A DNA stretch of 64,000 bases. Origin: Candidatus Latescibacterota bacterium. GTDB taxonomy: Bacteria; Latescibacterota; UBA2968; GCA-2709665. Numbering within the stretch: the stretch's first letter is position 1; each line of letters starts with the position of its first letter. The stretch is from contig OZ252100.1 in NCBI GenBank assembly GCA_965248435.1, forward strand, positions 416,001 to 480,000, given 5' to 3'. Below the pieces are notes generated by a model that saw nothing but the letters and a program-made list of their open reading frames with translations, made no database searches and was not told where the DNA came from. Below are positions 1,274 to 47,439 of this stretch, piece after piece. The position numbers and the translations under genes are program-made.

Positions 1274-1708
1274 ATGCTCGGCAGAAAGTTTATCGATGTT
1301 TTGTGTCGGACGGCTGTCTGTCTAGCGTGCCTGCTGGCCATTGAGATGGTTGCGTGCGGCGACGGCGGAAAGCTCAGTCAGACGATCATCGGGACCTGGT
1401 CCATCGACATCGGTGGGTCAAGACTTGCCATGAACGTCTCGATTCAGGATCTGTCCGGGTCCCTGATACAACGCCTTTCGGAACAGGGACACGCCGGCCG
1501 GTTTCGGTCGGCAGCCTATCGAATTGACGCTGAGAATGCGGACACACTCAGCATTTCGGTTGCGGCTCTGGGAGAATTCACCGTTGTCCGTTCTGGTGTC
1601 ACGTCGGTCGCCGAGCTCTTTTTCGTGAGCACCCACGACGGGTTCATGGGGGCCCATCCAGAACACCTGGGCCTGCTACGAAAAGAGGCCGGTTCATCGA
1701 ATCCCTGA
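1274..1708 (+). CDS. Hypothetical lipoprotein
   Basis: ATG at 1274 gives a basic N-terminus, hydrophobic stretch and lipobox-like MVAC; IIGTW motif typical of lipocalin-like lipoproteins. Confidence 0.55.
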   Translation: MLGRKFIDVLCRTAVCLACLLAIEMVACGDGGKLSQTIIGTWSIDIGGSRLAMNVSIQDLSGSLIQRLSEQGHAGRFRSAAYRIDAENADTLSISVAALGEFTVVRSGVTSVAELFFVSTHDGFMGAHPEHLGLLRKEAGSSNP

Positions 1709-1766
1709 ATCGGCCTTGCACATCCTTCGGAGACGCGTTGCGCGCAGGTCCGCAGCGGAGTCTGTC

Positions 1767-2117
1767 CTACGCCTCTTCGACAGACCCGAATTCCTCTGCG
1801 AGTTGTCGCAGATAATCAAAGGTGTAGATTCCTGTGTCGTGGCCGTCTGCCCACGTCACCTTGATGGCATATCTGCCCACGGCAGCAACATTGAGCACCT
1901 TATCCGTAGCGGCCGCCTCTCCGCTCGTGATAACGTGTAGCCCATCCTTTGCAACCTGCTTCTCCCTCTGATCCACGCATACCGCGCAGGGACAGTACCT
2001 TCGCAGATCAGCCAGGGAAAACCTGGCTTTCGTGCCGTCTTTCCATTGGGTCTTGATTTGACCTGCATCTCGATCGATGTCGATCTGCTGAAGTGTGTTT
2101 GCTTTCGGATTTTCCAG
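1767..2117 (-). CDS. DUF971 / gamma-butyrobetaine hydroxylase-like N-terminal domain protein (probable CTG start)
   Basis: Frame stays open upstream of the tracked GTG through WKDG...LRRYCPCAVC; C-terminal VGRYAI.V.WADGHDTGIYTFDYLR; AGGA SD 6 nt before an in-frame CTG at 2117. Confidence 0.85.
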   Translation of the reverse strand: MENPKANTLQQIDIDRDAGQIKTQWKDGTKARFSLADLRRYCPCAVCVDQREKQVAKDGLHVITSGEAAATDKVLNVAAVGRYAIKVTWADGHDTGIYTFDYLRQLAEEFGSVEEA

Positions 2118-2289
2118 ATCAGATCCTGACTACTTGAGAAGTGTCGATCAATACGACATTAGGCTAACTTCATTTCTCTTCCACACACAAGGTGCCGCCA
2201 AAGGAACTTTTCGGTCCGACGGGGGTCTACTTCATAAGAATGCATAATGCAGAATCATATCCCGGTCCAGGGCCCGCGGGTCGTTACAG

Positions 2290-3045
2290 ATGAACTTCAT
2301 CCATCATCGATTCTCAGACAGCCTGCTTTCGATCCTTGCCCGGAGTCGCGAGAGGCAGAAGCGATTCACCCGTCTGCTTGCCGACCGACCGACGGGCGTC
2401 AGGATAAAAGTCCGCGAAAAAGCTGCCGACGCGGACCTGAAACGGGCCTACACCCAGTTGATGGCCAGGTCTTCTGCCATTTCCTCCCTGTTCTTGGCAG
2501 CCCTTTTCCTTCTCTTCTCCGAGTTTGAGCCGTCGGTTTACCTGGGCACAGCCCGAACACCGTTTATCCAGATACAGGACATCCCTGAAACCGTGCAGCG
2601 CTTTCAGCCTGAAACGCCACGTCCCGCGGAACCCCTGGCCGTTGAAGGTGAGGAGATCCCCGAGGACGTGACGATCGAATCTACCGAACTGGATCTGGAC
2701 AACGTCCCGGTCGACTTGCGTATGACGGGTCCGATGGCCATGGGGCCGCCGGTGGATGAAGCCTTGGACATTTCAGAGATCGAAGACAAACCCAAGTTCG
2801 TCTTCTGGCCGCTTCCGGAATACCCCGAAGCCGCCTTGAAAGATAAACTGGAGGGTGTCGTAAATGTGCGTGTCTTGGTTGGCAAGGACGGCAGGGTTGA
2901 GCAGGTGGAAGTGATCGGCGGCACAAAACTCTTCTTTGAGGCAGCGGTCGCGACGGCACGCAGATATCGTTTTCGGCCGGGTAAGCACGAAGGCGAAATC
3001 AGGAAGGTCTGGATGCCGATGCCGATTCGCTTTTCCCTGAAATAG
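2290..3045 (+). CDS. tonB: Energy transducer TonB family protein
   Basis: TM helix, Pro-rich linker, C-terminal PEYPEAA..EGVV.VRVLVGKDGRV..FRPGK..PIRF. Confidence 0.85.
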   Translation: MNFIHHRFSDSLLSILARSRERQKRFTRLLADRPTGVRIKVREKAADADLKRAYTQLMARSSAISSLFLAALFLLFSEFEPSVYLGTARTPFIQIQDIPETVQRFQPETPRPAEPLAVEGEEIPEDVTIESTELDLDNVPVDLRMTGPMAMGPPVDEALDISEIEDKPKFVFWPLPEYPEAALKDKLEGVVNVRVLVGKDGRVEQVEVIGGTKLFFEAAVATARRYRFRPGKHEGEIRKVWMPMPIRFSLK

Positions 3046-3152
3046 CTCGGATCCGCCTTTCAGGGGAGGTAATCTCCTAATCCGCCTCACGTAGCCGCCT
3101 TGAAAACACGTGGACAATGTTGAACGGGACGCAGGGTCATTCCCTGGGCAGG

Positions 3153-3863
3153 CTACCTTTCCAAATTGTGTCTAAACGTCAATTCCTGCAACAAAATCCC
3201 GAAACGCTCCCGAAGTGCCGGCTTCAAACGAAACGCCCTCCGATAGGCCACCGCGGCGTCGTCATAGAATCCCTGTGCCGTCAAGACTCGCCCCATCAGC
3301 ACATAGCTGGGGGCGTAGTTTGGTGCACGTTCTGTGGTTTTGGACGCCATCGCCAGTGCCTCCTCCAGGTTCCTTCGCCGCAGATAGATCCAGCCCAGCC
3401 CTTGATAGGCCTGGATGACACCGGGATCCTGGCGCAAAGCCAGCTTGTAGTGCTGCTCCGCTACTTCCAGGTCCCCCTGCTTTTGATGAAAGTATCCAAG
3501 AGCAACGCTGACGCCTGCATCCACCGAATCCAGAAGGGCGATCCGCCTGCAGACCTGGATGGCCTGAAAATAGGCATCCAGATTGGCATAGGCGCTGGCC
3601 AGGAGCCGGAGTGCCTGGAAGTCTGACGAGTCTCGACGAACGATTTCATTCAGTTCGGCAGCGGCAGCCGCAAACTCCCCCGCTTCCATGGCCTCCACGG
3701 GCGCCCGCAGATTTGGTGGAACGGAGGAGACGAGCGTATCCTGCAGCACGTCCCAAAAGGGATCGTCCACTTCCTGTGCCCGGGCTTGGCCGGAGTACAG
3801 ACTCAGACCTGCCCACACCCAAACGATCGGGATTATTACGAATCGAGCCAATTCCTGTTTCAC
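3153..3863 (-). CDS. Secreted tetratricopeptide repeat protein
   Basis: Signal peptide (ARA|QE) and multiple TPR motifs. Confidence 0.85.
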   Translation of the reverse strand: MKQELARFVIIPIVWVWAGLSLYSGQARAQEVDDPFWDVLQDTLVSSVPPNLRAPVEAMEAGEFAAAAAELNEIVRRDSSDFQALRLLASAYANLDAYFQAIQVCRRIALLDSVDAGVSVALGYFHQKQGDLEVAEQHYKLALRQDPGVIQAYQGLGWIYLRRRNLEEALAMASKTTERAPNYAPSYVLMGRVLTAQGFYDDAAVAYRRAFRLKPALRERFGILLQELTFRHNLER

Positions 3864-4519
3864 CCCCTGCGGGCCCGCCTCCGTCGTCTGCGCATCACAA
3901 GAGAATAGACGATAATCAACCCCGCGAACGCACCGACAACAGCACCGATGGTCTTGTTCGACAACTTCCCGAGTTCACCCTTGATCCGACCGTGTTGGTT
4001 TACGAAAGCCGTGTTGTCCGGCTCCAGATCCATGGCCTTTTCGATCAGGAGCAGGGCCTTTTCTGCATCCCCCTGCGCGAAGTGGAGTCTCGACAGATTG
4101 TAGTAGGCCGTCCCGATTTCCGGATCGATAGAGATCGTTTTTTCGTAAAGCCTTTTCGCACGCTCGGCTTTGCCCTGTTTTTCATACACGGATCCCAGGT
4201 TGTTATAGGCGTGGCCTTCTCTGGGTCGGAGTTTGATGACCTCCAGGTAGTACTTGCCGGCCAAGTCGTAACGTTTCTGATTGAAGCAAAGACCCGCGAG
4301 ATTATAGAGGGCGTCCGCGTGTCCGGGATCCAGTTTGATGATCTCATAATAAAGTTTGACCGCCCTCCTTGGGTTGATCGGGCGGTCTATCCCCAAATGA
4401 TATCGTTGTGCCTCCTCGAACAACTGCTGCACTTCCCCAGCGGGAGGCCTCTGCCCCTGGGCGCCCGACGCCGTCACAAAAATCAGCAGCCCCGGGAGAA
4501 TCCTCCAGATCCTGTTCAC
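3860..4519 (-). CDS. Sel1/TPR repeat protein with C-terminal membrane anchor
   Basis: Signal peptide, ALYNLA/AYNNLG TPR motifs, C-terminal TM helix followed by a poly-Arg tail. Confidence 0.85.
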   Translation of the reverse strand: MNRIWRILPGLLIFVTASGAQGQRPPAGEVQQLFEEAQRYHLGIDRPINPRRAVKLYYEIIKLDPGHADALYNLAGLCFNQKRYDLAGKYYLEVIKLRPREGHAYNNLGSVYEKQGKAERAKRLYEKTISIDPEIGTAYYNLSRLHFAQGDAEKALLLIEKAMDLEPDNTAFVNQHGRIKGELGKLSNKTIGAVVGAFAGLIIVYSLVMRRRRRRARRG

Positions 4520-5769
4520 GTTTCCTCACAGTCGCCGGATCCGTCGGAGCCTCCGACGATGATGAATGAGGTATTGTCCCTGCCCGAAACCGCAAAATCC
4601 TGTGAAGTGCGATAAGCGATTTGGCCTAAATCTGTGTCGGCGTCCATTCTCCCCATGAGGGACTGAACGTTGAGCTCGGGATGTTTGATGATCCCGTCGG
4701 TTCCCAACAGAAAGAGACCGGGGCCGATGACCACAGAGCCGCAGTCAATAAAGTCTTTGTTAAATCGCTTGTCTCCCAACCAGATACTGAGTTTTCTTCC
4801 AGTGATTCCATACCCTAAATCCCGGTTGAGCTGGTGGACCTGCCCCCCGTTGGCCTGGTATAGAAACGCATCGCTCACAGACGCCCAGTGGAGTTTGGCA
4901 CCCTCCCTGACCGCAGCGACAAGGCTGGACCGACTCCGTTGTACCGTAATGTCGGAGAGGACTGAACGGTGACACCGCGTGATCGTATTGATCAAAAACT
5001 GTCTAATGTCTTCGTCCGCCATCGCCCCATCGGTCTCGAACCCGAGCCGGAAGAGCTCGAGCATCTTGCTGACGACCAGCTCGCTGCTGCGAGCCCCGTG
5101 GTGGGCGTCCGCAACAACGAAAATCTCTTTTCCAGCCGCGCGGTGAAATCCGAGGGCGTCTTCGTTCGGCTCCCGAGACATTGGGTCCGCTCGGCCCCCG
5201 GGCGTAAACCCGAATGCGGCCTGGTCCGCACCCCTCAGGCCCCCTCCCAGGAAATCCCCTCGGCGGCGATGGAATCGTCCCAGAATCAGCAAATCGTGAT
5301 GAAATCCTGCCGCTTTCTGAGCGTCGATCTGAGCCTTGGTTCGGTCGATCACTTCCAGGCGGTGCGGTTTCTCATCATTACCATCCTCCCGGCGCTCGGA
5401 TAAATCCCCTTCCAATTCCCTCAAAAACCCTTCAAGCACCTGACGCGGCGCATCACCCGGCTTGGAGGACCCGTTACTTTCTCTAGAGGAAAACCGGTCA
5501 GTGTAGAATTGCTTCAGTGAGCGATGGAAATCTCGAATCGATACCAGGGGAGGATCGATTTGGACACCGCCCGCTTCTGTGCGGAATACGAGCACTGTTG
5601 CTTCCTGGAATCCCCCTCTGCTGAGGTCGAAGTGCAACAGATGGGCCTCGAGCTTGTCCACCCGGTCCGAACCTGTTAAGGGCCCCACACGAAGGTCCAC
5701 GACTCGGGGCGCGAAGACCGCAGAAAAGACGGGGTTTGAAGCCCCGGTGCTTGAGTGAGATAGATTCAT
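4516..5769 (-). CDS. PP2C/SpoIIE-like protein phosphatase domain protein with an uncharacterised N-terminal region
   Basis: NEDA, VVADAHHG, ASVSD, LLGTDG, GRDNTS motifs of the PPM fold. Confidence 0.75.
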   Translation of the reverse strand: MNLSHSSTGASNPVFSAVFAPRVVDLRVGPLTGSDRVDKLEAHLLHFDLSRGGFQEATVLVFRTEAGGVQIDPPLVSIRDFHRSLKQFYTDRFSSRESNGSSKPGDAPRQVLEGFLRELEGDLSERREDGNDEKPHRLEVIDRTKAQIDAQKAAGFHHDLLILGRFHRRRGDFLGGGLRGADQAAFGFTPGGRADPMSREPNEDALGFHRAAGKEIFVVADAHHGARSSELVVSKMLELFRLGFETDGAMADEDIRQFLINTITRCHRSVLSDITVQRSRSSLVAAVREGAKLHWASVSDAFLYQANGGQVHQLNRDLGYGITGRKLSIWLGDKRFNKDFIDCGSVVIGPGLFLLGTDGIIKHPELNVQSLMGRMDADTDLGQIAYRTSQDFAVSGRDNTSFIIVGGSDGSGDCEET

Positions 5770-5966
5770 TATCGACCCAATCTTAAGGGTCGGGAGAACA
5801 CAAGGTGCTCCCCGATAGGTTCCGGATCACAGTAGCAGACCTGCGATCTTATGACGCGAGATATTCACCGTACGGGCACGTCGAACAGTGCCTCCGTCCG
5901 CTATTCCGATACTCGATGCAGCGAGCCCGATACATCCTGCGATCCACGAACGACGATCACCGCAAT

Positions 5967-6155
5967 TTAGAAAGGATACATCACATTCAGTCGCTGGACC
6001 AAGCCGTCGCGCCTCGAGTCAGGGTCTTCCAGAATCACCTCAATCGCGGGACGACTCTGCCAGAGCCTCAGACTGAGGGCCCAGTCGATGTCCAGGCTGC
6101 GAAGGGCAAGGCGGGCAACCAGAAACATAGGAGTCAGAATTTTGATCGCAAACAA
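5967..6155 (-). CDS. Small hypothetical protein
   Basis: 62-aa ORF co-directional with its neighbours in an otherwise unexplained gap; no motif. Confidence 0.3.
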   Translation of the reverse strand: MFAIKILTPMFLVARLALRSLDIDWALSLRLWQSRPAIEVILEDPDSRRDGLVQRLNVMYPF

Positions 6156-6296: not shown

Positions 6297-7385
6297 TCAC
6301 TCGTCGATATTGGCCAACTGTTCGATCCAGAGTCGAAATCGGCCGATTTGGGCGGGCGTAAGGAAGGGTCCCCCCTGAGGCATTCGGTCGCCAAGGATCC
6401 CTTCGTTCTCCTCTAGCTTCAGGATGATGTAGCTCTCGTCAGGGGCGCCGGGTTTAACCCGGCTCAGAGATGCGGATTGCCGGCTCGGCACCTCCAGGAG
6501 ATTTTCCAGTGAGAGCCCGGCCTCCAGGACAAGCCCCTCCCCGGGAGGGAACTGCTCGCTGGCAGCGTGGCAGCCGACAAATGCACAGGTGGTGTCGAAA
6601 ACGGGCTGGATCTGTGTCGCGAAAGAGACCACCGGCGAAAACCTGAAGGAAAAGCGATCTCCTTTCCCCTCGGCGATTTCCTGACCCGAGAGGTCTTTTA
6701 CTGCCCTCACGACCAGGGTGTAAGCGACCCCCGGAGATTGAGGCGCAGTCGTCAACAGGACGCGATCCTCGCCTGCCGTACGAGCATCTATCACGGCGAG
6801 GGATGTTCCCTCACTCGATATAGCATAGTTTTCCGGAAGGCCTGCAGTCGCAGGATCGACCGGCTCACTGAAGGTGACCTCCAGACTGATGCTGTCTGCC
6901 GAAACGACGGCCAGGACCGACGGCGGGGCTGGAGGCGCCGTGGACAGGAGTGCTCCCTCATCTATCCAGCGCTTAATGGCATCGATCTCGGCCGCGGTCA
7001 AGGGTGTGCGGCCGAGCGGCATCTGGTCCCCGAAAATGGGACGACCTGCCGGGTCCTGGCCCTCCAGCTTCCAGACGAGCAGACTGTTGTCAGGATCCCC
7101 CGGAATAACCTGCGGCCCGTTTTTGCTGAGAGTCGGGTCCAGAAGTTCCACGAAGGAAACCTCAGACGTCAGGAGTAGTCCTGCTTGTTGATTGCCTGTA
7201 CCGCCCGGTTCGTGACAGCCTCCTGTGCAGGTCCGATTGAACACGGCCTGGACGTCGCGGTCGTAGAAAGCCGTGGCCCCTTCGGGTGCCTCCACGGATC
7301 GCGCCGTCGGAAACGGAATGGGGTCCCGCACGGCACTGCACCCGGCCACTAGAATGTACGCTATTGTGAAAAGCGATCGATTCAT
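6297..7385 (-). CDS. Lipoprotein with two planctomycete-cytochrome-C-like domains (CTGGCH, CAFVGCH) flanking an Ig-like domain
   Basis: ATG 7385, lipobox LVAGC; duplicated domain VQ.VF..C..CH...GL.L...V.PG.PD.S.L..KLE...GD.MP....LT.A.I....WI. Confidence 0.85.
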   Translation of the reverse strand: MNRSLFTIAYILVAGCSAVRDPIPFPTARSVEAPEGATAFYDRDVQAVFNRTCTGGCHEPGGTGNQQAGLLLTSEVSFVELLDPTLSKNGPQVIPGDPDNSLLVWKLEGQDPAGRPIFGDQMPLGRTPLTAAEIDAIKRWIDEGALLSTAPPAPPSVLAVVSADSISLEVTFSEPVDPATAGLPENYAISSEGTSLAVIDARTAGEDRVLLTTAPQSPGVAYTLVVRAVKDLSGQEIAEGKGDRFSFRFSPVVSFATQIQPVFDTTCAFVGCHAASEQFPPGEGLVLEAGLSLENLLEVPSRQSASLSRVKPGAPDESYIILKLEENEGILGDRMPQGGPFLTPAQIGRFRLWIEQLANIDE

Positions 7386-7392
7386 TCCGAAC

Positions 7393-8583
7393 CTACTGGT
7401 GGCAATATCCGCAGAAGCCGACTCCCGAAATTCGGGTTTCCAGGTGACACGCGTAGCAAAGGGAGTGCGGGTCTGAATGAAATTCCCCGTTGCCAGCTTG
7501 ATCTGCAAACCGGGTCCCGTGGGTTTTGGGATCCGTCCCTCGGACACCGTCAAAATCGACGTGGCACTGGATGCAGCTCGGGTCCTCCCCGTCCACGTCG
7601 TGACAGCTCACGCAGGTCTCGATATCCCGACGCGCCCACGAACCGTGCCGTCCCCCACCTGAACCGACGCCGGCCAGGACCCATGGCCTTGGATCGTCCG
7701 GTAGTGGGCCGTGCCAGACCGGCTTGAACCGGCGTTCGTCCCCTTCGATCCTGTGACATTCAACGCAGAAGTCCGTGGCGTGGCAGGTCGCGCACTGCCG
7801 TTCTTTGCCCGCCGCATCCAACGGGTGCGTAAACCTGTAGTTCAGCTCGTGCTGCCTTTGCAGGATCTGTCCGACCCTGCAACGGTTTTGAGGTGCGCCA
7901 GACACAGACCGCTCCGGCGGTGCCTCCAGGTCCACCAAAAGGGCACCGGCGTGGCAGTCTTCGCACCAGGTGTCCTGGTGACACTGTGCACAAGGCATTT
8001 CGCCCGCACGGGAATGCTGTTTATGCTCGTGTATCCAGTCCGCCCTGTGGCTCTGCGGTCGAATCACCTCGACTTTGGGATGGCAGGTCTCGCAATCGTA
8101 TGGCGCATCAGCGTCCTGGTGACACGTGAGGCACTCGGGCATGGTAGGCCAATTCTTCCTGCTCGCGTAGTCGGTCTCCGGCATCCCGCGATGGCAGTCC
8201 TGGCAGTCCAGTTCAAGTTTCTCGATATGGAAGTTGTGGGGGAAGTCGATCACGCGTTCGGGGTTCTCGAACGCCACAGGTTGGGCAGGATCCTGATGGC
8301 ACTTCTCACACTGTGCCGGATCTTTTACCTCTTCTTTGTGGCAGTCCGCGCAGGTCTCTTCCAACGGAAGCAGATTTTCCCCGGCGAGACTGCTGGATTG
8401 AGCCTTCACGTGGCAATCCCTGCAGAAAAGCCCCATGTCCATCAAGTGGTAGCGATGAGAGAACAGGATGATGGCGCTTCGATTCTGCTCCGGGATCGTG
8501 ATGGGGATATCGGACTCCTCCGCGGATGCATCCCACGGAAGGCACGAAAATGCCAGAGCGATCGCCAGGTGCGTCAGCTTCAC
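7393..8583 (-). CDS. Periplasmic multiheme cytochrome c (14 CxxCH; c7/c3-like N-terminal repeats)
   Basis: Signal peptide; 14 CxxCH motifs counted; FSHxxH/FPHxxH c7-type axial His motifs. Confidence 0.95.
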   Translation of the reverse strand: MKLTHLAIALAFSCLPWDASAEESDIPITIPEQNRSAIILFSHRYHLMDMGLFCRDCHVKAQSSSLAGENLLPLEETCADCHKEEVKDPAQCEKCHQDPAQPVAFENPERVIDFPHNFHIEKLELDCQDCHRGMPETDYASRKNWPTMPECLTCHQDADAPYDCETCHPKVEVIRPQSHRADWIHEHKQHSRAGEMPCAQCHQDTWCEDCHAGALLVDLEAPPERSVSGAPQNRCRVGQILQRQHELNYRFTHPLDAAGKERQCATCHATDFCVECHRIEGDERRFKPVWHGPLPDDPRPWVLAGVGSGGGRHGSWARRDIETCVSCHDVDGEDPSCIQCHVDFDGVRGTDPKTHGTRFADQAGNGEFHSDPHSLCYACHLETRISGVGFCGYCHQ

Positions 8584-9908
8584 TGGGACGCGCTCCTCGT
8601 TGGGCCTGGGCCGCGGAAGAACCAGGTGGTCGCCCTGAAAAAGAAACGAAGATCGTGGGAACTGCCAGGAAAGGGGTTGGCTCGTGACGCGAGCTTCAGG
8701 TCCTGCACCAGATCCTGCCCCTGTACGCTGATCGTAAGGTGACGGCTGGGTCGGTAGCTGAGACCGAGCGTGGACGTCAGCACTGTGCTGCGCGCTCCCT
8801 CGCCATCATAGGTTCTGAACTTCGAGAAATGAAAGCCCCCGTCGACCCAGATTTCAGGATTCAGGCGAAATCGGAGATTCGCCGTCGCACCGTCCCCGAT
8901 ACCGCCATATCCGCGCCTCCGAATGTAGCCCACGTAGCCATTCAACAGGTTTGCTCCCAAGTTGGCCCTGTATCCCTGGTCTGCTTCATAATCCACCGAG
9001 GAAAATTCGCCGAAGAGGCTAAAATGTCGATTGAACCGGTAGCTGCTCCGGAAGGAGAGTTCCTGATTGCTGCTCTGATTGAACAGGGCAAAGATGCTGT
9101 TCTGATCCACATACGGCGTCCGGTAAAGGTATTCCCCCGAGATCGTGAACCCGCCCTGATGATAACGCAATACCCCCTCCATCCGGCGCGTGCGCAGCTC
9201 GCCAGGGATGCTCAGATCCCATCGAAGCGTGAGGTTCGTGCGTTGGCCCAGGTCTCTACCGACGTCGAACCCGACCATCTCCTGCTCCACCTCTCCGGGG
9301 CGCACCTCCAGATCACTCAGTCCGGCCGCAATGCGAGCGTCTGACAGGTAGGTCTCGGTACGGCGGCTTCGACGGTAGAAACTGATCCCCAGTCGGGTAT
9401 CCTGGATCCGTGAGGAAACGAGATGAATCCCGAACATGTGTCCATCTCCCCACGAACTTACGCCTTCACGGTCAAGGGAGGGAAGCGAGCCCGCATAGGC
9501 GTCCAGGCGGGCGAGTCCGCCGATGTCCAGATCTGCCCTTACGCCGTCGATCCGGCCTACGCCCACGCCCGCGAAGACCAGCTGTCGCCCCCAGGTCACC
9601 ACGAACCGGTCCTGTGTATCCTTCCATCTGAAATAACCGTGATAAAAACGATGCTCGGGCTGGTTCCCAGCCCTGTTGAATAGATCCAACGAGGTTCGCA
9701 CGTAGGTCTGAAAAGAAAACTCCGGACGAGCCAGTCGCATCACCCTGAGGCGTGCGGACTGGTAGGCCCGGAGGTCGGCCCGGCTGACCGTATCTGGATA
9801 CGATCGCTCGAACGTGTAAAGGGCGGTCGTAAAACGCCCCGTCACTCCAGTGGCAGACGCACTGCCGGCCAGGAGCGACAGGGCGACTGTCGCTGCGAGA
9901 AGACGCAA
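8580..9908 (-). CDS. Outer-membrane beta-barrel protein (putative porin of a porin-cytochrome complex)
   Basis: Signal peptide, alternating hydrophobic/aromatic beta-strand pattern, aromatic-rich C-terminal strand; 4-bp overlap with the multiheme gene. Confidence 0.75.
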   Translation of the reverse strand: MRLLAATVALSLLAGSASATGVTGRFTTALYTFERSYPDTVSRADLRAYQSARLRVMRLARPEFSFQTYVRTSLDLFNRAGNQPEHRFYHGYFRWKDTQDRFVVTWGRQLVFAGVGVGRIDGVRADLDIGGLARLDAYAGSLPSLDREGVSSWGDGHMFGIHLVSSRIQDTRLGISFYRRSRRTETYLSDARIAAGLSDLEVRPGEVEQEMVGFDVGRDLGQRTNLTLRWDLSIPGELRTRRMEGVLRYHQGGFTISGEYLYRTPYVDQNSIFALFNQSSNQELSFRSSYRFNRHFSLFGEFSSVDYEADQGYRANLGANLLNGYVGYIRRRGYGGIGDGATANLRFRLNPEIWVDGGFHFSKFRTYDGEGARSTVLTSTLGLSYRPSRHLTISVQGQDLVQDLKLASRANPFPGSSHDLRFFFRATTWFFRGPGPTRSASQ

Positions 9909-9935: not shown

Positions 9936-11024
9936 CTATACGCTCAAATCGAAAAACCTGATGAAGACCAGGAAATCGAAGAAATCGATCCTGTCATCCG
10001 GGCTCAGATCAAACTTCGGGTCGTATTCAGCGTCTCCAAGAACCTTGTTAAAGACCACCGTGAATTCGATGAAGTCAAAGAAGTTTACCGTGTTGTCCCC
10101 GGTAAAATCCCCCAACAACATCTTGGCGACCGACCACTGCATCTGTGCCACAGAATTCTCCCCACTCGACGCCGTCACCAAAACTTCGTCATCAGCCTCA
10201 CCGGTCGTCACGGCCAAGATGAAAGAGGAGCCGGTCTCAGCCTGCTCAATGCCGTTTGCGATCCAGACATAGGTCACGGCCTCGCCATCGGGATCTTCGG
10301 CAACTATAGAAAACGTAATTGTCTCTTCGGGCATACCCAGGACGGTCGTCCTGCCCGGGTCGGCACTCGTAATCTCTACCTCGCGATCGACGTTTTCGAC
10401 GACGATCTGAACCGCCTGGGAGACCTCCTCCTCTCCGTCGCTAGCGGTAAAAGTAATGTCGAACGTGTTTCCACCCTGTTCGAAATCAGGCACCCAGGAA
10501 AAGCTGTTGTCTGAGAGGCTGCCGCCAGAAGGCAGTCCACTCGCTGCGTATACAATCTGATCGTTGTCCTCGTCGGTGGCTTCCACGAGGAAAGTCAGCG
10601 TTTCGCCCTCCTTCACGGTCGCGTTCGGAATGGACGCAAGAACGGGCGCACGATTCTGGACTACCTCAGGCTTGCTGTTCGCATCTCCAGGGTTCGTGAC
10701 CTGGGCTCCCGAGATGGGAGAACCCGTGCCGTTCGGATCACCGAGCTCCTCACCATTCGTGAAGCCGTCGCCGTCAGAATCCATAGACGCGATCGAGGAA
10801 TTCCAGACCACATTGCCGGCGTTTCCTGAGGCTGTCAGAAATCCACCGTTGATTGCGTTACCGAACGAATTTCTCGCACCGCCTCCACTCGCACTAACGT
10901 GGCAGTTCGCACATCGATTCACGCTGCCATTCGGGATCTGATTGACCCGCTTGCTTCTGGCACTGACGGACGAAGCTGAGGTGAGAACCAGGACCAGACT
11001 GAGAAACAGGTAGCTGTAGGCCAT
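9936..11024 (-). CDS. Secreted protein: temptin-like domain with CANCH heme motif + cadherin/Ig-like domains + C-terminal dockerin/EF-hand pair
   Basis: ATG 11024 with GGGAGG SD; IPNG..CANCH..GGGARNSFG..W..DSDGDGFTNGEELGDP..NPG; NRAPV Ig repeat; GDFTGDNTVNFFDF...DLSPDDRIDFFDF. Confidence 0.85.
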   Translation of the reverse strand: MAYSYLFLSLVLVLTSASSVSARSKRVNQIPNGSVNRCANCHVSASGGGARNSFGNAINGGFLTASGNAGNVVWNSSIASMDSDGDGFTNGEELGDPNGTGSPISGAQVTNPGDANSKPEVVQNRAPVLASIPNATVKEGETLTFLVEATDEDNDQIVYAASGLPSGGSLSDNSFSWVPDFEQGGNTFDITFTASDGEEEVSQAVQIVVENVDREVEITSADPGRTTVLGMPEETITFSIVAEDPDGEAVTYVWIANGIEQAETGSSFILAVTTGEADDEVLVTASSGENSVAQMQWSVAKMLLGDFTGDNTVNFFDFIEFTVVFNKVLGDAEYDPKFDLSPDDRIDFFDFLVFIRFFDLSV

Positions 11025-11188
11025 ACACGCCCTCCCACGGATGATGAAGTTGTAAAATCTGGGGAACTCCCAGTAGAAACATATGGCTGACCTCCGAGCT
11101 GCCCGGGTATGGCTTTCCGGGCAACTCATTGCTACCTTATACGCTTTCGTGGGTAGATGGATGCAGGAAAATTCGCGTGGGGACGCAG

Positions 11189-11318
11189 AAAAGAAAAAAC
11201 CCCGGCCCGCTCGATCGCCTGTTATTGAGATTCGCTCACTCAACGGCGTGGAGAGGTCCGTCACGTGAGGTCATAACGGCGGGGGAGAACTGAGCAGGCC
11301 GGGCAACTTCCACTGATC
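11189..11318 (-). ncRNA. Candidate structured RNA / attenuator (long hairpin ending in a U-tract)
   Basis: TATAAC -10 at 11325-11330; nested stems CCCGGCCUGCUC/GAGCGGGCCGGG, GCC-GUUAU-GA/UC-AUAAC-GGC, CUCAC/GUGAG, GACGG/CCGUU; followed by GUUUUUUCUUUU. Confidence 0.55.
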
Positions 11319-12913: not shown

Positions 12914-13654
12914 TCAGGCAACTCTTCCAAACTGTCGAGCGAAATCCAGAAAGTCCAGAAAGTCCACCGCTTCGTTGTGGTTGAGATCGAACCTCTCGTC
13001 ATAGTGGATCTCTCCCAACCGGGTTCCGAATCGAAGGACGAATCCAAGGAAGTCGATGAAGTCGACCTTCCCACTATCGTCGAAATCGGCAGTTATCGTG
13101 TCCTTTTCCTCACCTCCTTGTCGCGTCATTCTGAGAATTCCCTGGGGGGGGGCCGTTTCTGCAACCAGGTCGGAGACCAGATCCTCGAACTCCCCCAGGG
13201 GGACGGTCTGGATCAGCCTGAGTGTATCCTCTCCGGCCGAATAAGAGAAGGTGTCCCGAACCCCGGGCGTCGGAATATTCTCAAGGATCAAAAGAGGTTC
13301 CTCCAGCCGGTATGTCCCTGCCGACCTTGCTGTATCCTCGTAGTCGGTCTGGATCGGAATCCCAAACAAGGAAAAAGACAGGCTTACGCTCAGGATGTAG
13401 CCTGCCTCGTAGCTTCCGTCCGGGCTGAGGGTGACGCGACCCGACACCCTCCCCGAAAAGGAGAGTCCAGAAATGGCTGAGAGCAGATCTGGCGATGCAT
13501 AAGCCTGCAAGGCAACCCTATCCGCTTCCCAGGTCCCAAGAGGGTCTCCTCCGGTGACGGCAGGCGCCTCGCTGAGTATCTCAGCATCTGCCCGAAATGC
13601 TGAGATCGCCAAAAAGCACAATACTGGAAGCACGGCCCTACACGACGCGCGCAC
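12914..13654 (-). CDS. Secreted protein with C-terminal dockerin/EF-hand pair
   Basis: Signal peptide; ADFDDSGKVDFIDF...FDLNHNEAVDFLDFLDFARQFG. Confidence 0.8.
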   Translation of the reverse strand: MRASCRAVLPVLCFLAISAFRADAEILSEAPAVTGGDPLGTWEADRVALQAYASPDLLSAISGLSFSGRVSGRVTLSPDGSYEAGYILSVSLSFSLFGIPIQTDYEDTARSAGTYRLEEPLLILENIPTPGVRDTFSYSAGEDTLRLIQTVPLGEFEDLVSDLVAETAPPQGILRMTRQGGEEKDTITADFDDSGKVDFIDFLGFVLRFGTRLGEIHYDERFDLNHNEAVDFLDFLDFARQFGRVA

Positions 13655-20749: not shown

Positions 20750-20803
20750 CCTTCCCTCCCTCACGCTTCACTCAAGTCCGCTTCACTTTCAAAGGAGATC
20801 GGC

Positions 20804-21856
20804 ATGGATACATCGATAACCACCCTGCTGGGGATCGTCTTTCTGGGACTGGCAGGGGCGTCTGTTTCGCTCATGTTCAAGCTGTGGGGCTATCCCTACG
20901 ACGAAGAGACTCACACCAGCACCGCACCCGAGTCCCTGGTTACGCTTCACAGGGTAATCGGCATTGCCTACGTGGTGATTTACATCGTCATGATGTGGCA
21001 AATGGTGCCGCGGATGTGGAACTACCAGATCGAGCTGCCGCCTCGCACCGTCGCCCACCTGATGCTCGGGATCTCCATCGGCGTGCTGCTGCTGATAAAG
21101 ATCTCCATTGTGCGTTTCTTCAGGCACTTCAGCAGTGCCCTCCCCTTTCTGGGTAGCGCGATTCTGCTCTTCACGGTTCTGCTCATCGGCCTCTCTGTGC
21201 CGTTCACGCTGCGCGAACATTACCTGCGCGCGGGGGCACAGCTTATGAGCGATGAGAGCCTTCAGCGGGTGCGGACCCAGTTGAAGACAGCCGACATGCA
21301 AGGAGATGTTCAGCTGGATCAACTGGCTTCCCGACGAAAGCTTCGAGAAGGGCGTCAAGTGCTGTTGTCCAAATGCGTCAAGTGTCACGATTTGCGAACG
21401 ATCCTGCTCAGACCTCGAACGCCCAAAAACTGGGTGCGAACGGTCGAACGGATGGCGCGAATGCCCACCATCGGGGAACCGATCACAGAAGCGGATGAGT
21501 GGACGGTGTCGGCATACCTCATCGCAATTACACCCGACCTGCAGAATTCGGCCAAGATCCGTCGGAAACGGAACCTGGAGGCGCGCGTGGTCCAGACGGC
21601 CATGCAGACCGCGTTCGTCCCGCACGACCAGGCCCGTGACGAGATGGCCTATGACCCGCAGATCGCCAGAGTCCTGTTTGAAGAGACCTGCTCTCAGTGC
21701 CACGAACTTTCGGAGGTCGACAACGCGCCCCCAACCACAGTGACGGAAACTCAGGGCCTCATCGCCCGCATGATCGAGAACGGGCTCTACCTGGAGGAGC
21801 CGGAGATCGAGGTCATTGTTCGATATCTGAATGAGATGTATGTCTCGAATGAGTGA
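20804..21856 (+). CDS. Membrane-bound diheme c-type cytochrome (4-TM N-terminal domain with conserved His + CVKCH and CSQCH)
   Basis: AAGGAG SD; four TM helices containing LHR and AHL; two CxxCH, each followed by an (E/A)RM distal Met motif. Confidence 0.85.
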   Translation: MDTSITTLLGIVFLGLAGASVSLMFKLWGYPYDEETHTSTAPESLVTLHRVIGIAYVVIYIVMMWQMVPRMWNYQIELPPRTVAHLMLGISIGVLLLIKISIVRFFRHFSSALPFLGSAILLFTVLLIGLSVPFTLREHYLRAGAQLMSDESLQRVRTQLKTADMQGDVQLDQLASRRKLREGRQVLLSKCVKCHDLRTILLRPRTPKNWVRTVERMARMPTIGEPITEADEWTVSAYLIAITPDLQNSAKIRRKRNLEARVVQTAMQTAFVPHDQARDEMAYDPQIARVLFEETCSQCHELSEVDNAPPTTVTETQGLIARMIENGLYLEEPEIEVIVRYLNEMYVSNE

Positions 21857-21976
21857 GGGGAATTCTACGACATCTATTCGTCCAGTGGAATCCTGAACTG
21901 CTTGTCGCCGGAGCAGGCCTCCGTGCCTGCCTGGACTTTCGGTCATCATTCGACAACGACCCGGTTTACTTCTTCC

Positions 21977-22020
21977 AAAAAAAAAACGGCGCCAGCGAAT
22001 TCGCATTCGCCGGCGCCGTC
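21977..22020 (-). terminator. Intrinsic terminator
   Basis: ACGGCGCCGGCGAAT/ATTCGCTGGCGCCGT stem followed by a long T run on the minus strand. Confidence 0.85.
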
Positions 22021-22046
22021 TCCTTGGGGACCGCAATCGCGGGGGG

Positions 22047-40979: not shown

Positions 40980-41789
40980 TCACTTCAAAAGCATCATCCG
41001 CCGAATTTGCGCGAAATTTCCGGCCTGGATTCGATAGATATAGATTCCACTCGCCAGCTGCCGCCCGTGTTCGTCCCTGGCATCCCAGTCCGCCGTATAA
41101 AACCCGGCATCGAGCGCTTCATTCACGAGGGTCCGGACCTCCTGCCCAAGCACATTGTAAATGACCAGACTCGCGTGCGCCTGCTCAGCCAGCTGGTAGC
41201 TGATCGTCGTGGTAGGGTTGAAGGGATTAGGCACATTCTGGTCCAGCCCGAAATCCTGTGGGAGAGCCCTCAGATCACCGACCTCTATGTTTTGGATTTC
41301 ATCGATGTTTCCTTCCAGGTCGACCAGAATGCCCTCGGCGATCTGAAAATCGGAAGGTAAGGGTGTATCGATGGCCTTGAACGTGACCTCGACCAACCTG
41401 CCTTCACCATCTGCGCTCTCTCCATCAACCTTCATAGATCCCAACGCCAGCCTTCCGGGCGTTCGATTCGAGGAGAGAAACAGGGTCGGCTCTCCGCTTC
41501 CGGTGTCCAGCAGGTTTCCTTCCCCCTCCTGGGCCTCTACGAACTCGTACTTTGCTGGATCGAATTGAAGCACAAACCCATAGCCTTTCAGCTGCTCGGT
41601 TTGGCCTATCCTGACCTGAAGCTTCAGGATCCCATCTTCTGCCTTGCGCGGATCCGCGCGTTCCAGCGTCAGTTCTGCGAATGCGTTCTTGCCCCCGGTG
41701 ATTTCTAGACCACTTGTGAGGTCTCTTGCCACGGCGGAAGTCGCCAGGATGAGCCCCCCACAGACCAATGCGGTAACACTCGATTTCAT
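40980..41789 (-). CDS. Secreted cohesin-domain protein with FlgD-Ig / T9SS-type C-terminal sorting domain
   Basis: GGAGG SD; signal peptide; LKGYGFVLQFDP...GEGRLVEVTF; L.QN.PNPFNP.T.I.Y...IYN.LGQ.VRTL...SGIY.Y...MMLLK. Confidence 0.88.
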   Translation of the reverse strand: MKSSVTALVCGGLILATSAVARDLTSGLEITGGKNAFAELTLERADPRKAEDGILKLQVRIGQTEQLKGYGFVLQFDPAKYEFVEAQEGEGNLLDTGSGEPTLFLSSNRTPGRLALGSMKVDGESADGEGRLVEVTFKAIDTPLPSDFQIAEGILVDLEGNIDEIQNIEVGDLRALPQDFGLDQNVPNPFNPTTTISYQLAEQAHASLVIYNVLGQEVRTLVNEALDAGFYTADWDARDEHGRQLASGIYIYRIQAGNFAQIRRMMLLK

Positions 41790-42003
41790 TCTCACACCTC
41801 CTGTTTTTACTGGTGCATCCTGCACCGAGTCGGCCTACGATCAGGCCTTTTCCTACAGTATTAATTATCGGCACAAACGCCACATCTCACTCAAAAAATT
41901 TACAGCCTAACTCTCCATTTGTCAACTAGTTTTCCCGTTCGGGGGACTCAGAAGAGGCCTCAGAATCGCCATTCTGGGGCGTTCCGAGCAAGATAATTGC
42001 CCT

Positions 42004-43530
42004 CTACGAGCCTTCCGAACTGTCCCTGAAATATCCTAGAATTCCCTCCACCATTCCGGGAATGGAGACCTGATTCGGGGGAGGCTCCGCGACAACGCGG
42101 AAACCTGCATCTCTCGCCGTCCTGGAGGTGACCTGACCAATACACGCTGCAGGCAGACGGCTCGTGACACCATCCAGTATCTCGGGACCGACCAGTTCTG
42201 CAAAATTCTTGACCGTGGATGAGCTGGTGAACGTCACCAGGTCCATCTCTCCACCGGCCAGTCGGTCCCTAACGGATTCTGGAATCCCCTCTGGCCGTTC
42301 TGTCCGATATGTTGTAATCTCGGTCACGTCGCCTCCTCTGTCCCTAAGGCCCTCTACAAGCACCTTTCTACCGATCTCGGACCGCGGAACCAGAAATCTT
42401 CGCACCGAAATGTCCACCTGATTCACGAGGGCCTCAAGGAGACCTTCCGCAACATGATTCGATGGGGTCAGATCTTCGCGGAGGGAGTATGTCGCAAGCT
42501 TTTCTGTTGTCGCGGGACCCACCGTCGCGACTTTGGTTCCCTTCAGGATCCGCAGGTCCTTCCCCAGGGCCAGGATCCGTCCAAACAGCCGCTCAACTGC
42601 GTTCGGACTCGCAAACACGATCCAGTCGAACTCTTCGATCTGAGAGATCGCCCGATCCACAGGAGACCAGTCTTCAGGATCCTGGATACAAATCGTGGGT
42701 ACCTCGACGACCTCCGCGCCCTGCTCCCGCAGGCTTCGAACGAGGTCGCTGTTTTGCGTACGGCTTCGGGTCACCACGATGGATCGGCCGAAGAGGGGGC
42801 GAGACTCGAACCAGGAAAGGTCGAAACTAGCGACCTCCCCAACGATGATCGCAGCAGGGGCCTGGATCTCCATCCGACTCAGGTCTCCCAAGGTTCCTCG
42901 GGCGGTTTCCTGATGCGGCAGACTGACCCAGCGTACGGCCGCAACCGGTGTATTTGGAGAAAGCCCGCCGGCCATCAACCGTTGCGCGATCTCGGCGCGA
43001 TTACCCACGCCCATCAGAATGACCAGCGTGCCGTTCACCTGAGATAACGCCTCCCAACGCACATCGGTTCCCGACTTTTTTGGATCCTCGTGGCCGGTCA
43101 CAACCGTCACGTTCCCGGAAACTCCCCTATAGGTCAAGGGAATCCCGGAGTAGGATGCAGCTGCAGTCGCGCTCGACACGCCCGGGACCACCTCGAATTC
43201 GATGCCGGCCTCCTTCAAGCTCCCGGCCTCCTCCCCACCGCGCCCGAAGATGAATGGATCGCCGCCCTTCAAACGAACGACTCGCTTTCCGGCCGCGCCC
43301 TTCTCGATCAACAGCGCGTTGATCTCCTCCTGCTGCATCGCCTGAAAGCCCGCGCGTTTTCCGACGTAGATCTTCTCGCAGGCTGGTTCTGCCTCATCGA
43401 TCAGGGCTTCGTCCACAAGATCATCATAGAGCAGCACTTCAGCTGCCTGGATACAGTGCAGCCCTTTCATGCTGATGAGCTCAGGGTCTCCGGGCCCCGC
43501 ACCAACGAGGGTTACTTTGCCCTTTTTCAT
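42004..43530 (-). CDS. cobA: Uroporphyrinogen-III C-methyltransferase / uroporphyrinogen-III synthase fusion (CobA-HemD)
   Basis: LVGAGPGDP, RLKGGDPFIFGRGGEE; C-terminal PLFG..VVTR, FTSSSTV. Confidence 0.96.
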   Translation of the reverse strand: MKKGKVTLVGAGPGDPELISMKGLHCIQAAEVLLYDDLVDEALIDEAEPACEKIYVGKRAGFQAMQQEEINALLIEKGAAGKRVVRLKGGDPFIFGRGGEEAGSLKEAGIEFEVVPGVSSATAAASYSGIPLTYRGVSGNVTVVTGHEDPKKSGTDVRWEALSQVNGTLVILMGVGNRAEIAQRLMAGGLSPNTPVAAVRWVSLPHQETARGTLGDLSRMEIQAPAAIIVGEVASFDLSWFESRPLFGRSIVVTRSRTQNSDLVRSLREQGAEVVEVPTICIQDPEDWSPVDRAISQIEEFDWIVFASPNAVERLFGRILALGKDLRILKGTKVATVGPATTEKLATYSLREDLTPSNHVAEGLLEALVNQVDISVRRFLVPRSEIGRKVLVEGLRDRGGDVTEITTYRTERPEGIPESVRDRLAGGEMDLVTFTSSSTVKNFAELVGPEILDGVTSRLPAACIGQVTSRTARDAGFRVVAEPPPNQVSIPGMVEGILGYFRDSSEGS

Positions 43531-43589
43531 CCACCTCTCCGAAAAACCCTAGATGCGTTCCGCGTCACGGTATCGTCTTTCATGAATCG

Positions 43590-44510
43590 CTACCTCAGAC
43601 TTTTCAAAATCTCGCCGGCCCCATCGGACAGGAGCTGGTCCGCCAGCGCCTGACCGAGTGCTTCCGAGGCCGAGGCGACACCCTCAGTCTGTCCTTGCAC
43701 CACACGGCTGCCATCCGGCAGTGCCACAAGCCCGTCCAGCACCATCCCGCTGCCCTCTTCACGTGCCCACGCGCCGATCGGTACCTCGCATCCCCCCTCG
43801 AGCGCACGGAGCATGGATCGCTCCGCCGTCACCGCACGGCGACTGGCCTTATCCTCCAGATCCGATACGATCTCCTCCACACCCGACTCTCTCGATCTGA
43901 CGGTAACGGCCATTGCGCCCTGTCCGGGGGCTGGCAGAATGCGGTCAGCGGCCAGGTACTCAGAGATCCGATCACGGAGGCCCAGCCGCTCGAGACCTGC
44001 GGCCGCCAGCACGACGGCATCCAGATCCTTCGCTTCCAGACTGTCGATGCGCCTCTCCACGTTCCCCCTCACCCCTTCGATCCTCAGATCAGGCCGGATG
44101 TTTAGGAGTTGCGCCTGCCTGCGGAGACTGCTCGTTCCCACGCGTGCCCCTTCTTTCAGCTCCGTCAAGTTTTCTCCTTTTCGACTTACCAGGGCATCCC
44201 TCACATCCGCCCTCGAGCTGACCGCTCCGATCTCCAGACCCTCCGGCAGTTCAGTGGGCAAGTCTTTCAGGCTATGCACGGCAAGATCGACCCCCCCATC
44301 CAGGAGCGCTTCGTCGATCTCCTTAGTAAAAACCCCCTTCCCGCCGATCGCGGAAAAGGGGGCATTCGAAATTCGGTCCCCTTTAGTACGAATGACCTGA
44401 ATCTCGACTGTAAGATCAGACCTGCGTTCCAGGAGGCCCTTTCGTGCCCACTCCGCCTGCCACAAGGCTAGGCGGCTACCTCGACTCCCTATGACCAGGT
44501 GTTTGGCCAT
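43590..44510 (-). CDS. hemC: Hydroxymethylbilane synthase
   Basis: GSRGS.LALWQ, GGKGVFTKE, AVHSLKD, GTSSLRR, LEGGC. Confidence 0.97.
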   Translation of the reverse strand: MAKHLVIGSRGSRLALWQAEWARKGLLERRSDLTVEIQVIRTKGDRISNAPFSAIGGKGVFTKEIDEALLDGGVDLAVHSLKDLPTELPEGLEIGAVSSRADVRDALVSRKGENLTELKEGARVGTSSLRRQAQLLNIRPDLRIEGVRGNVERRIDSLEAKDLDAVVLAAAGLERLGLRDRISEYLAADRILPAPGQGAMAVTVRSRESGVEEIVSDLEDKASRRAVTAERSMLRALEGGCEVPIGAWAREEGSGMVLDGLVALPDGSRVVQGQTEGVASASEALGQALADQLLSDGAGEILKSLR

Positions 44511-46463: not shown

Positions 46464-46501
46464 CGTGATATAGAATCCGTGACCCCCACGCGAAGGCGAG
46501 G

Positions 46502-47329: not shown

Positions 47330-47439
47330 CCGGGTGTGGCCCGATCGCACGGTTGAAAGAGGCCATAAAACCGACGCCGTCCGGCGGCACCTAAAATTCG
47401 AGGTGACCCAAGTTCCCGGACGGCGATTAAGCGACCTCT

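Follow-up and report, generated by a model that had tools for sequence, protein, structure and literature searches.

A gene in a 64,000-nucleotide stretch of a Candidatus Latescibacterota genome (assembly GCA_965248435.1, contig OZ252100.1, positions 416,001 to 480,000 of the forward strand; the whole stretch is hereafter the window) was found to encode a 362-residue protein, P0001, whose temptin-like domain carries the haem c attachment motif CANCH. We consider P0001 to be probably a secreted, surface-tethered, calcium (Ca)-binding monohaem c-type cytochrome, and its domain to belong to a large bacterial family homologous to temptin. In the mechanism that we propose, a Sec leader would deliver P0001 to the periplasm, and the cytochrome c maturation system would link haem to C38 and C41, while H42 would serve as its proximal ligand. 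The EF-hand-like loop D82-E93 would bind Ca2+ and stiffen the small domain, while Ig-like spacers and a dockerin-like tail would keep it on a surface scaffold, and the domain would relay electrons between the cell and an outside partner. Here the electrons would pass through a co-transcribed module that combines a 14-haem and a lipoprotein cytochrome with a putative outer-membrane barrel, P0001 being the outermost partner.

Homology of the Bacterial Domain to Temptin

The Pfam family PF24784 (Temptin_C) matched residues 21-102 of P0001 along positions 2-82 of its 98-column profile (E 1.6e-12, 48.2 bits, gathering cut-off 27), and all 120 listed bacterial homologues matched it as well. Since the PF24784 model is centred on eukaryotes, whose members scored about 1e-33 to 1e-57 compared with 3.3e-16 for the best of the 120 bacterial members, the bacterial match is non-circular evidence of relatedness. 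A phmmer search of 5.8 billion sequences with residues 21-125 returned, among short proteins, the temptin of Trichoplax (P0163) with an E of 3.3e-4. The search from P0163 gave 38 proteins, of which the named ones came from molluscs, placozoans and a flatworm and were called 'temptin', 'temptin-like', 'MOXD1 homolog' or, in UniRef, 'Temptin Cys/Cys disulfide domain-containing protein'. When 32 bacterial sequences were aligned as a profile with 28 eukaryotic ones, hhalign gave a probability of 99.8% (E 1.8e-29) over 96 columns with 39% identity. These sequence comparisons indicate that the bacterial domain and animal temptin are homologous, as an earlier reading of the sequence by itself (the original prediction) had proposed.

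The consensus of Trichoplax temptin and its 37 eukaryotic homologues was IPNG..VPNPC..W.GVGH..GG..RN.FG..W..LC..DSDGDGKTNGEELGDP.C..HPGICEP, which agreed with the temptin motif that the original prediction had given. The bacterial C-x-x-C-H aligned on the temptin P-C-x(6-9)-W-x-G-V-G-H, so that CxxCH was seen at the very GVGH position that had been named. The two forms share the His. Where CxxCH has its second Cys, temptins have a Gly, and a short stretch is inserted between their first Cys and the His. Compared with temptin and the other PF24784 proteins, including the N-terminal domain of lophotrochozoan DBH-like/MOXD1-like proteins, the bacterial domain has IPNG, the His, GGxxRNxFG, the Trp, DSDGDGxTNGEELGDP and PG in the same order and spacing, and in both groups the protein is secreted and the domain comes straight after the signal peptide. 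The bacterial members differ in lacking the other conserved Cys of temptin (LC, DPxC, ICEP, C); the invariant eukaryotic columns C79, C99 and C137 have no bacterial counterpart. The partners differ too, being Ig, dockerin, type IX secretion system (T9SS) and CHRD domains in bacteria and a Cu monooxygenase in eukaryotes. In the literature, temptin is presented as a pheromone of molluscs and a protein of biomineralisation, with a 'Ca-binding EGF-like' motif (PMC10075465, PMC2762978), and treated as a Ca-binding, disulfide-stabilised protein (PMC2762978, PMC10075465) with two disulfides (PMC2762978).

Constancy of the CxxCH Motif in the Bacterial Family

A total of 206 bacterial-type proteins of 199-634 amino acids passed an E of 1e-3, and the best 120 were examined. 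All 120 carried CxxCH. The P-N-G-x4-CxxCH spacing was fixed in 119 of them, the domain had no further Cys in 118, and 85 had just two Cys across the entire protein, as does P0001, where both lie inside CANCH. The motif started by residue 74 in 119/120 homologues, at a median of residue 38, which therefore places the predicted haem domain at the mature N-terminus and leaves the remainder as spacer or anchor. Among shorter matches, CxxCH was present in 41 of 44; the exceptions were P0148 and P0161, which are fragments starting after the motif, and the Trichoplax temptin. In contigs taken at one genome per species, 500 stretches matched the pattern, 484 were confirmed by tblastn, and the best 80 were kept; CxxCH stood in frame upstream of the Ca loop in every one of these 80 loci. 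Members occurred in Latescibacterota, Ignavibacteriota, Bacteroidota, Verrucomicrobiota, Gemmatimonadota, Calditrichota and others, under at least seven phylum-level labels.

None of the 38 eukaryotic P0163 matches carried CxxCH. A temptin profile of 28 eukaryotic sequences was then searched against 1.84 billion cluster representatives, of which 3,566 matched at E <=1e-3, 2,040 at <=1e-10 and 216 at <=1e-30. The best 150 of the 3,566 included 145 new proteins, and CxxCH was found in none of these, while 122 had x-x-x-G/S/P-H (the GVGH type) and the other 23 were not parsed by the pattern; as the tabulation covers these best 150, bacterial forms without CxxCH or eukaryotic forms with it may exist among the roughly 3,400 weaker matches. 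The tabulation of CxxCH that the original prediction had put forward as a check thus gave the motif in all complete bacterial members examined and in no eukaryote-type member examined. Among the matches was also the 6,532-residue P0241, in which 36 stretches match the temptin profile and the best covers only profile positions 66-92, the Ca loop. By its sequence it is probably a TSP3-type repeat protein and not a family member, and some of the 3,566 matches are probably loop-only.

On a rough estimate from about 1% Cys and 2% His, which is not a computed control, CxxCH would be expected in a protein of such size well under 0.01 times. Because of this low expectation and the invariance across the bacterial family, the motif is not a chance occurrence. 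CxxCH after a Sec leader is the defining signature of haem c attachment, and we infer attachment in P0001 from the motif and its context together with established knowledge of cytochrome c maturation.

Protein Layout and Conserved Columns

The minus-strand open reading frame 9936..11264 is open for 442 amino acids, and the ATG at 11024 within it gives the 362-residue P0001. We preferred this ATG because of homologue length and a ribosome-binding site: P0002, the closest homologue among the matches listed (78% identity across the domain), likewise has 362 residues, and GGGAGG lies 7 nucleotides upstream. The GTG at 11264, with which the longer frame starts, was rejected on the same two grounds and for its lack of a leader. 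From the ATG, a typical hydrophobic Sec-like leader reads MAYSYLFLSLVLVLTSASSVSA followed by RSK, the cleavage after VSA being predicted from the sequence by eye; this leader would bring the protein to the compartment of haem attachment. The features are collected in Table 1.

Table 1. Features of the P0001 gene and its operon, in window coordinates.
Feature	Position	Strand	Basis
P0001 gene, 362 aa: temptin-like cytochrome domain (predicted), Ig-like domains, dockerin-like tail	9936..11024	(-)	stop codon 9936-9938
Predicted signal peptide, residues 1-22, cleavage after VSA	10959..11024	(-)	read from sequence by eye
Temptin-like domain, residues 23 to ~120	10665..10958	(-)	Pfam Temptin_C, hhalign, column conservation
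CANCH haem c attachment motif, residues 38-42, at the temptin GVGH position	10899..10913	(-)	sequence, alignment
DSDGDGFTNGEE, EF-hand-like 12-residue candidate Ca-binding loop, residues 82-93	10746..10781	(-)	column conservation; Pfam TSP3_bac E 0.012
Bacterial Ig-like domain Big_9, residues 124-205	10410..10655	(-)	Pfam E 3.2e-8, 34.8 bits, cut-off 23.6
Second Ig-like region, residues 206-303, weak evidence	10116..10409	(-)	PKD E 0.028; NF038112; 5cyx_A
Dockerin-like module with two D-rich loops, residues 304-357	9954..10115	(-)	solved dockerins; Pfam sub-threshold
Gene 2, 442 aa, signal peptide, putative outer-membrane beta-barrel	8580..9908	(-)	beta-amphipathic moment; no family match
Gene 3, 396-aa cytochrome, 14 CxxCH motifs, c7-type repeats	7393..8583	(-)	Pfam Cytochrome_C7 1.1e-16; PDB 3ouq_A 7.9e-11
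Gene 4, 363-aa putative lipoprotein (LVAGC lipobox), two PSCyt1/cytochrome-c-like regions flanking a Big_5 Ig-like domain	6297..7388	(-)	Pfam

The motifs follow in the order R23-SKRVNQ, IPNG (30-33), SVNR, CANCH (38-42), VSAS, GGGARNSFG (47-55), W74, DSDGDGFTNGEELGDP (82-97) and NPG (111-113). The pattern IPNG-x4-CANCH-x4-GGGARNSFG...W...NPG was therefore read exactly as first described. It had been placed at the mature N-terminus, and there the position needs amending: the predicted mature protein begins at R23, seven residues before IPNG.

Column conservation was determined in 162 aligned sequences, namely 161 bacterial ones and the Trichoplax temptin. C38 and C41 were each present in 161/162, the sole exception being the Trichoplax temptin, and H42 in 162/162. 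The invariant or near-invariant columns were P31, N32, G33, C38, C41, H42, G47-G49, R51, N52, F54 and G55 in the first part, W74, L78, A79, D82, D84, D86, G87, N90, G91 and E93 in and before the loop, and L94, D96, P97, P112 and G113 after it. The loop residues D82, D84, D86, G87, N90 and E93, each found in 161 of the sequences, form D82-x-D84-x-D86-G87-x-x-N90-x-x-E93, which matches the canonical 12-residue EF-hand-type pattern and suggests Ca binding. In a profile search of the PDB the loop aligned with the EF-hand loops of polcalcin and calmodulin, non-significantly (best E 0.036).

Behind the domain, the Ig-repeat region of the NCBIfam family NF038112 aligned with residues 123-258, and the cadherin-related PDB entry 5cyx_A with residues 143-249 (E 4.1e-4). 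Residues 265-359 matched solved dockerins in the PDB with E of 2.6e-5 to 2.2e-4 (2b59_B 2.6e-5, 5k39_B 3.2e-5), and Pfam Dockerin_1 matched weakly, at 16.7 bits under a cut-off of 22.9. With Big_9 above its cut-off, the fusion to an Ig domain that had been described was borne out; that to a dockerin is probable from the solved structures.

The partner domains of the 120 members were T9SS sorting domains in 53, FlgD_ig in 31, Big_9 in 20, He_PIG in 19, CHRD in 13, Cadherin_5 in 12 and dockerin in 7. Judged from these predicted domains, an N-terminal haem domain followed by spacer and anchor is the layout of a protein that is exposed on the outside of the cell. Two stand-alone bacterial members of about 155 residues, P0123 and P0126, are named 'dopamine beta-monooxygenase' by one source and have PF24784 as their only Pfam domain; the name was presumably transferred from the temptin part of animal DBH-like proteins. 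In P0117, a TrAA12 match of 22.5 bits against a cut-off of 30.9 was rejected as a dehydrogenase fusion, being sub-threshold and located in a Cys-rich tail.

Operon and Family Neighbourhoods

The P0001 gene leads a row of four co-directional genes with little space between them. The gene 2 protein had no match in Pfam (E up to 10), NCBIfam or the PDB and no hydrophobic helix after its leader; its beta-amphipathic moment was 1.12, compared with 0.86 +/- 0.06 in 200 shuffles (about 4 standard deviations above). The start of gene 3 overlaps the end of gene 2 by 4 nucleotides, and its 14 CxxCH motifs, two genes downstream of P0001, point to an organism that produces c-type cytochromes. A gene of the Cytochrom_C_asm family (CcsA/HemX-like) also lies in the window, at 46505-47350. 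In gene 4, Pfam gave Big_5 at 4.1e-5, PSCyt1 at 4.8e-5 and Cytochrom_C at 0.0017; the motifs are CTGGCH (CX3CH) and CAFVGCH (CX4CH), not CxxCH, and these unusual spacings are putative haem sites. Upstream of the P0001 gene there is a gap of 360 nucleotides, followed by a 359-residue protein of no recognised family and a response regulator, and a simple promoter and terminator scan added nothing.

Two genes upstream, 12914-13654 (-) encodes a 246-residue secreted protein with a dockerin-like end (Pfam Dockerin_1 E 0.051). Similarity at about 1e-11 links its tail with the C-terminal ends of P0001 orthologues, for example in L075 and L059. Together with the tail of P0001, at least two dockerin-bearing proteins would therefore be encoded side by side.

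For the neighbourhood statistics, the family open reading frame was recognised in 71 of the 80 kept loci. A same-strand CxxCH gene or cytochrome c biogenesis gene stood within three genes of it in 19/71. Genes of these two kinds numbered 26 among 375 near genes and 8 among 391 more distant ones (odds ratio 3.6, Fisher p 0.0013; independence is overstated here, as the loci are related to one another). The claim that the gene heads a cytochrome operon is thus correct for the co-directional genes here and does not extend to the family in general.

Some arrangements recurred. A CcsA-x-ResB/CcmF-like order led into the family gene in 5 loci, of which 3 were preceded directly by a 6- or 8-haem cytochrome, and in 5 loci the family gene was followed by a 365-388-residue protein with one CxxCH. 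In L034 the gene ahead of the family gene encodes a 16-CxxCH cytochrome that has a T9SS tail. Behind the family gene of L025 (Verrucomicrobiae, 1435-6111 (+)) come a DmsE/GSU2203-like 7-haem cytochrome and an 813-residue PSCyt1+MtrB_PioB porin, an arrangement that is, on its domain matches, recognisable as an MtrAB-type module. We know of no description of a cytochrome-porin fusion of this kind, no search for one having been made.

The order YceI-DUF5777-family gene was found in 5 loci (L009, L028, L041, L052, L071) and YceI-MarR-family gene in 7 (L012, L014, L026, L032, L033, L062, L078); in L026, L032 and L033 a 118-127-residue protein with one CxxCH stands in front of the latter. This recurrent YceI/DUF5777 or YceI/MarR module belongs to Ignavibacteriota and Bacteroidota, with T9SS-tailed members directly after it, and the DUF5777 genes are beta-barrel genes. 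Further orthologues from Latescibacterota share the Ig-dockerin tail but are followed by other genes.

Alternative Roles of the Domain

Several observations count against a haem-carrying electron carrier in this protein. Because the eukaryotic homologues, which are haem-free, keep the His without exception as well, its conservation alone is no argument for haem. The domain had no significant similarity to any known cytochrome c family in Pfam or the PDB: the Pfam scan of P0001 gave no cytochrome match at an E of 0.1 or better, the best-noted PDB cytochrome c was 4nfg_B at E 1.3, and the domain as a whole had no significant solved relative in the PDB by sequence or by profile (best E 0.036). 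The only cytochrome-named family that matched, sub-threshold, from CxxCH through the Ca loop was NCBIfam NF041762 (GEGP motif-containing dihaem protein), locally over residues 34-130 and profile positions 47-130 of 359 (E 3.2e-7); its score of 29.9 bits compares with a cut-off of 300, and P0001 has one CxxCH, not two. No conserved Met, second His, Lys or Tyr was available as sixth ligand in the 162 sequences, and position 81, a Met in P0001, was L in 72, M in 26 and I in 15. Judged by this lack of a distal-ligand column, a classical low-spin electron carrier is not assured. Moreover, 52/71 loci had no nearby cytochrome gene, and homologues of genes 2 and 3 followed the family gene in only 2/80 loci, L047 and L050, which are two contigs of one Gemmatimonadetes-labelled genome (gene 2 homologues at 58% identity). 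The barrel assignment of gene 2 comes from a heuristic and stays putative, and no cohesin was recognised among the window proteins scanned.

One alternative is a haem-free domain, in which C38 and C41 would either pair in a disulfide or make up a non-haem metal site, and which would act as a Ca-dependent binding ('glue') module like temptin. Such a role agrees with the eukaryotic homologues, which function without CxxCH and keep the His, with the missing similarity to known cytochromes in Pfam and PDB profile searches, and with the description of temptin as Ca-binding and disulfide-stabilised (PMC2762978, PMC10075465). Against it stands a C-x-x-C-H that is invariant directly after the Sec leader; the more than 240 sequences with it represent several phyla, and their genomes are rich in c-type cytochromes. 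In 5 loci, too, the family gene comes directly after cytochrome c biogenesis genes. We regard a haem-free domain as very improbable.

Since the sixth ligand has no obvious candidate, the haem may be five-coordinate or may take its ligand from a partner protein. The haem could then be high-spin with an open distal face and bind or turn over O2, NO or H2O2, as a sensor, a scavenger or a peroxidase-like protein. Neighbours of the regulator or stress type (MarR in 7 loci, extracytoplasmic function (ECF) sigma factors in 6, YceI in 13) and the many loci with no cytochrome nearby are in line with this role. The neighbours are, however, enriched for multihaem cytochromes and MtrAB-like modules, and no catalytic-type residues can be named from the sequence alone. 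Compared with electron relay, ligand binding at the haem seems unlikely to us.

A further variant keeps the electron transfer and changes the acceptor, so that the domain would feed extracellular oxidative enzymes on a dockerin/cohesin scaffold and not minerals. By analogy, the cytochrome domain of fungal cellobiose dehydrogenase feeds copper monooxygenases, and animal temptin is fused to Cu monooxygenase. The dockerin-like tail of P0001 and the second dockerin-like protein two genes upstream would suit a scaffold of this kind, as would the glucuronoyl-esterase genes that immediately precede the family gene in 4 Verrucomicrobiota loci and the CHRD domains of 13/120 bacterial members. Fusion to a Cu2 monooxygenase, found in 15 of 20 eukaryote-type representatives (2 of the 15 also with cytochrome b561), points the same way; these representatives were hand-picked, mostly long and not a random sample. 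However, among the window proteins scanned no copper oxidase, lytic polysaccharide monooxygenase (LPMO)-like or cohesin gene was recognised, and the immediate partners of P0001 are cytochromes and a putative barrel. This donor role is, in our view, rather improbable, and the surface-tethered monohaem cytochrome that relays electrons through its operon partners is the reading that we prefer.

Comparison With Known Electron-Transfer and Scaffold Systems

The domain resembles the small soluble monohaem cytochromes of class I in its length of about 100 residues, its single CxxCH near the N-terminus and its Sec export. It differs from them in having no profile similarity (neither Cytochrom_C nor Cytochrome_CBB3 matched) and no conserved Met or His as sixth ligand, H42 being the sole conserved Met/His column, and in having an EF-hand-like Ca loop and a predicted surface tether of added domains.

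MtrCAB of Shewanella and Pcc of Geobacter are porin-cytochrome conduits. The operon in the window resembles them in joining a multihaem and a lipoprotein cytochrome to a putative outer-membrane barrel, and L025 has a true MtrB_PioB with a DmsE-like cytochrome. In contrast, the barrel in the window matches no porin family, and hhalign found no similarity between the gene 2 protein and the MtrB_PioB porin of L025 (probability 0.2%); the 14-haem protein is of the c7 type and not the MtrA type, and the surface cytochrome would here be monohaem and dockerin-anchored. If the assignment holds, such a component would be added to the known parts of extracellular electron-transfer conduits.

As in cellulosomal type I dockerins, the C-terminal module has 55 residues and two D-rich loops and matches solved dockerins (E 2.6e-5). 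Unlike those, it falls below the Pfam cut-off, its carrier would be a cytochrome and not a glycoside hydrolase, and no cohesin was seen in the window.

Eukaryotic Relatives and Direction of Change

Among the eukaryote-type representatives, 64/145 were longer than 400 residues. P0320 and P0336 combine the temptin domain, the N and C domains of Cu2 monooxygenase and cytochrome b561 in one chain. P0244 has its temptin domain behind Ig domains, and in P0262 C-type lectin and dermatopontin domains are present as well.

Sets of 160 bacterial and 161 eukaryotic domains were thinned to 55 and 45, and a tree was built from these over 96 columns. One branch, with an SH-aLRT support of 99, separated the CxxCH-bearing from the eukaryotic forms, and one change of state therefore suffices. 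The bacterial sample is biased toward P0001 relatives, and the tree is unrooted and cannot by itself give the order of the forms. To our knowledge, the eukaryotic secretory pathway has no haem lyase. For this reason, and because the bacterial family is broad, with at least seven phylum-level labels, and the eukaryotic names are metazoan-only, a cytochrome that came first and lost its haem would be the more economical direction, in line with the derivation from a cytochrome that the original prediction had raised.

According to PMC2762978, temptin stands in place of the DOMON domain in lophotrochozoan DBH-like proteins, as was noted in 2009. A full scenario can be drawn up, in which the temptin family, including this DOMON-replacing head of the DBH-like Cu monooxygenases, would descend through a single change from a bacterial Ca-binding surface monohaem cytochrome c. 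The covalent haem would have been lost for want of a secretory haem lyase, and the retained axial His would still hold a haem b or a copper that feeds the Cu monooxygenase. A redox cofactor on the retained His would fit the chains in which temptin is naturally joined to Cu monooxygenase and cytochrome b561. As a whole we put this scenario forward tentatively and hold it to be doubtful.

Relation to Existing Annotation

Bacterial proteins are already labelled PF24784 in databases, and among the matches listed all are, except for the short partial fragment P0149. In the literature searched, which lay outside subscription journals, InterPro text and supplements, there was no mention of bacterial temptin-like proteins, of a haem motif in the family, of PF24784 or of a link between temptin and cytochromes, nor of the GEGP motif, a dockerin cytochrome or a T9SS cytochrome. 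What would be new is a haem-binding bacterial form of the temptin domain, which would equally be a new family of small surface c-type cytochromes.

If the bacterial relatives do bind haem, a testable function as surface cytochromes would be at hand for thousands of secreted bacterial proteins, and the many T9SS tails would point to haem proteins exported by the T9SS. Animal temptins would gain an evolutionary origin and a structural hypothesis, that of a cytochrome fold minus its haem. The swap of temptin for DOMON in DBH-like monooxygenases would then be the replacement of one electron-transfer module by another.

Other Genes of the Window

The region 42007-47350 (-) holds a haem biosynthesis cluster with Cytochrom_C_asm, precorrin-2 dehydrogenase-like, hemA, hemC and fused cobA/hemD genes. 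At 20804-21856 (+) a 350-residue membrane-anchored dihaem cytochrome with two CxxCH motifs is encoded (Cytochrome_CBB3 E 6e-7). Its gene is hidden beneath the longer antisense open reading frame 20789-22036 (415 amino acids, no family), which a longest-frame rule would choose. In addition, 40983-41825 (-) encodes a 281-residue protein with FlgD_ig and a T9SS C-terminal sorting domain, by which the organism may use a T9SS, although its temptin-like cytochrome carries a dockerin.

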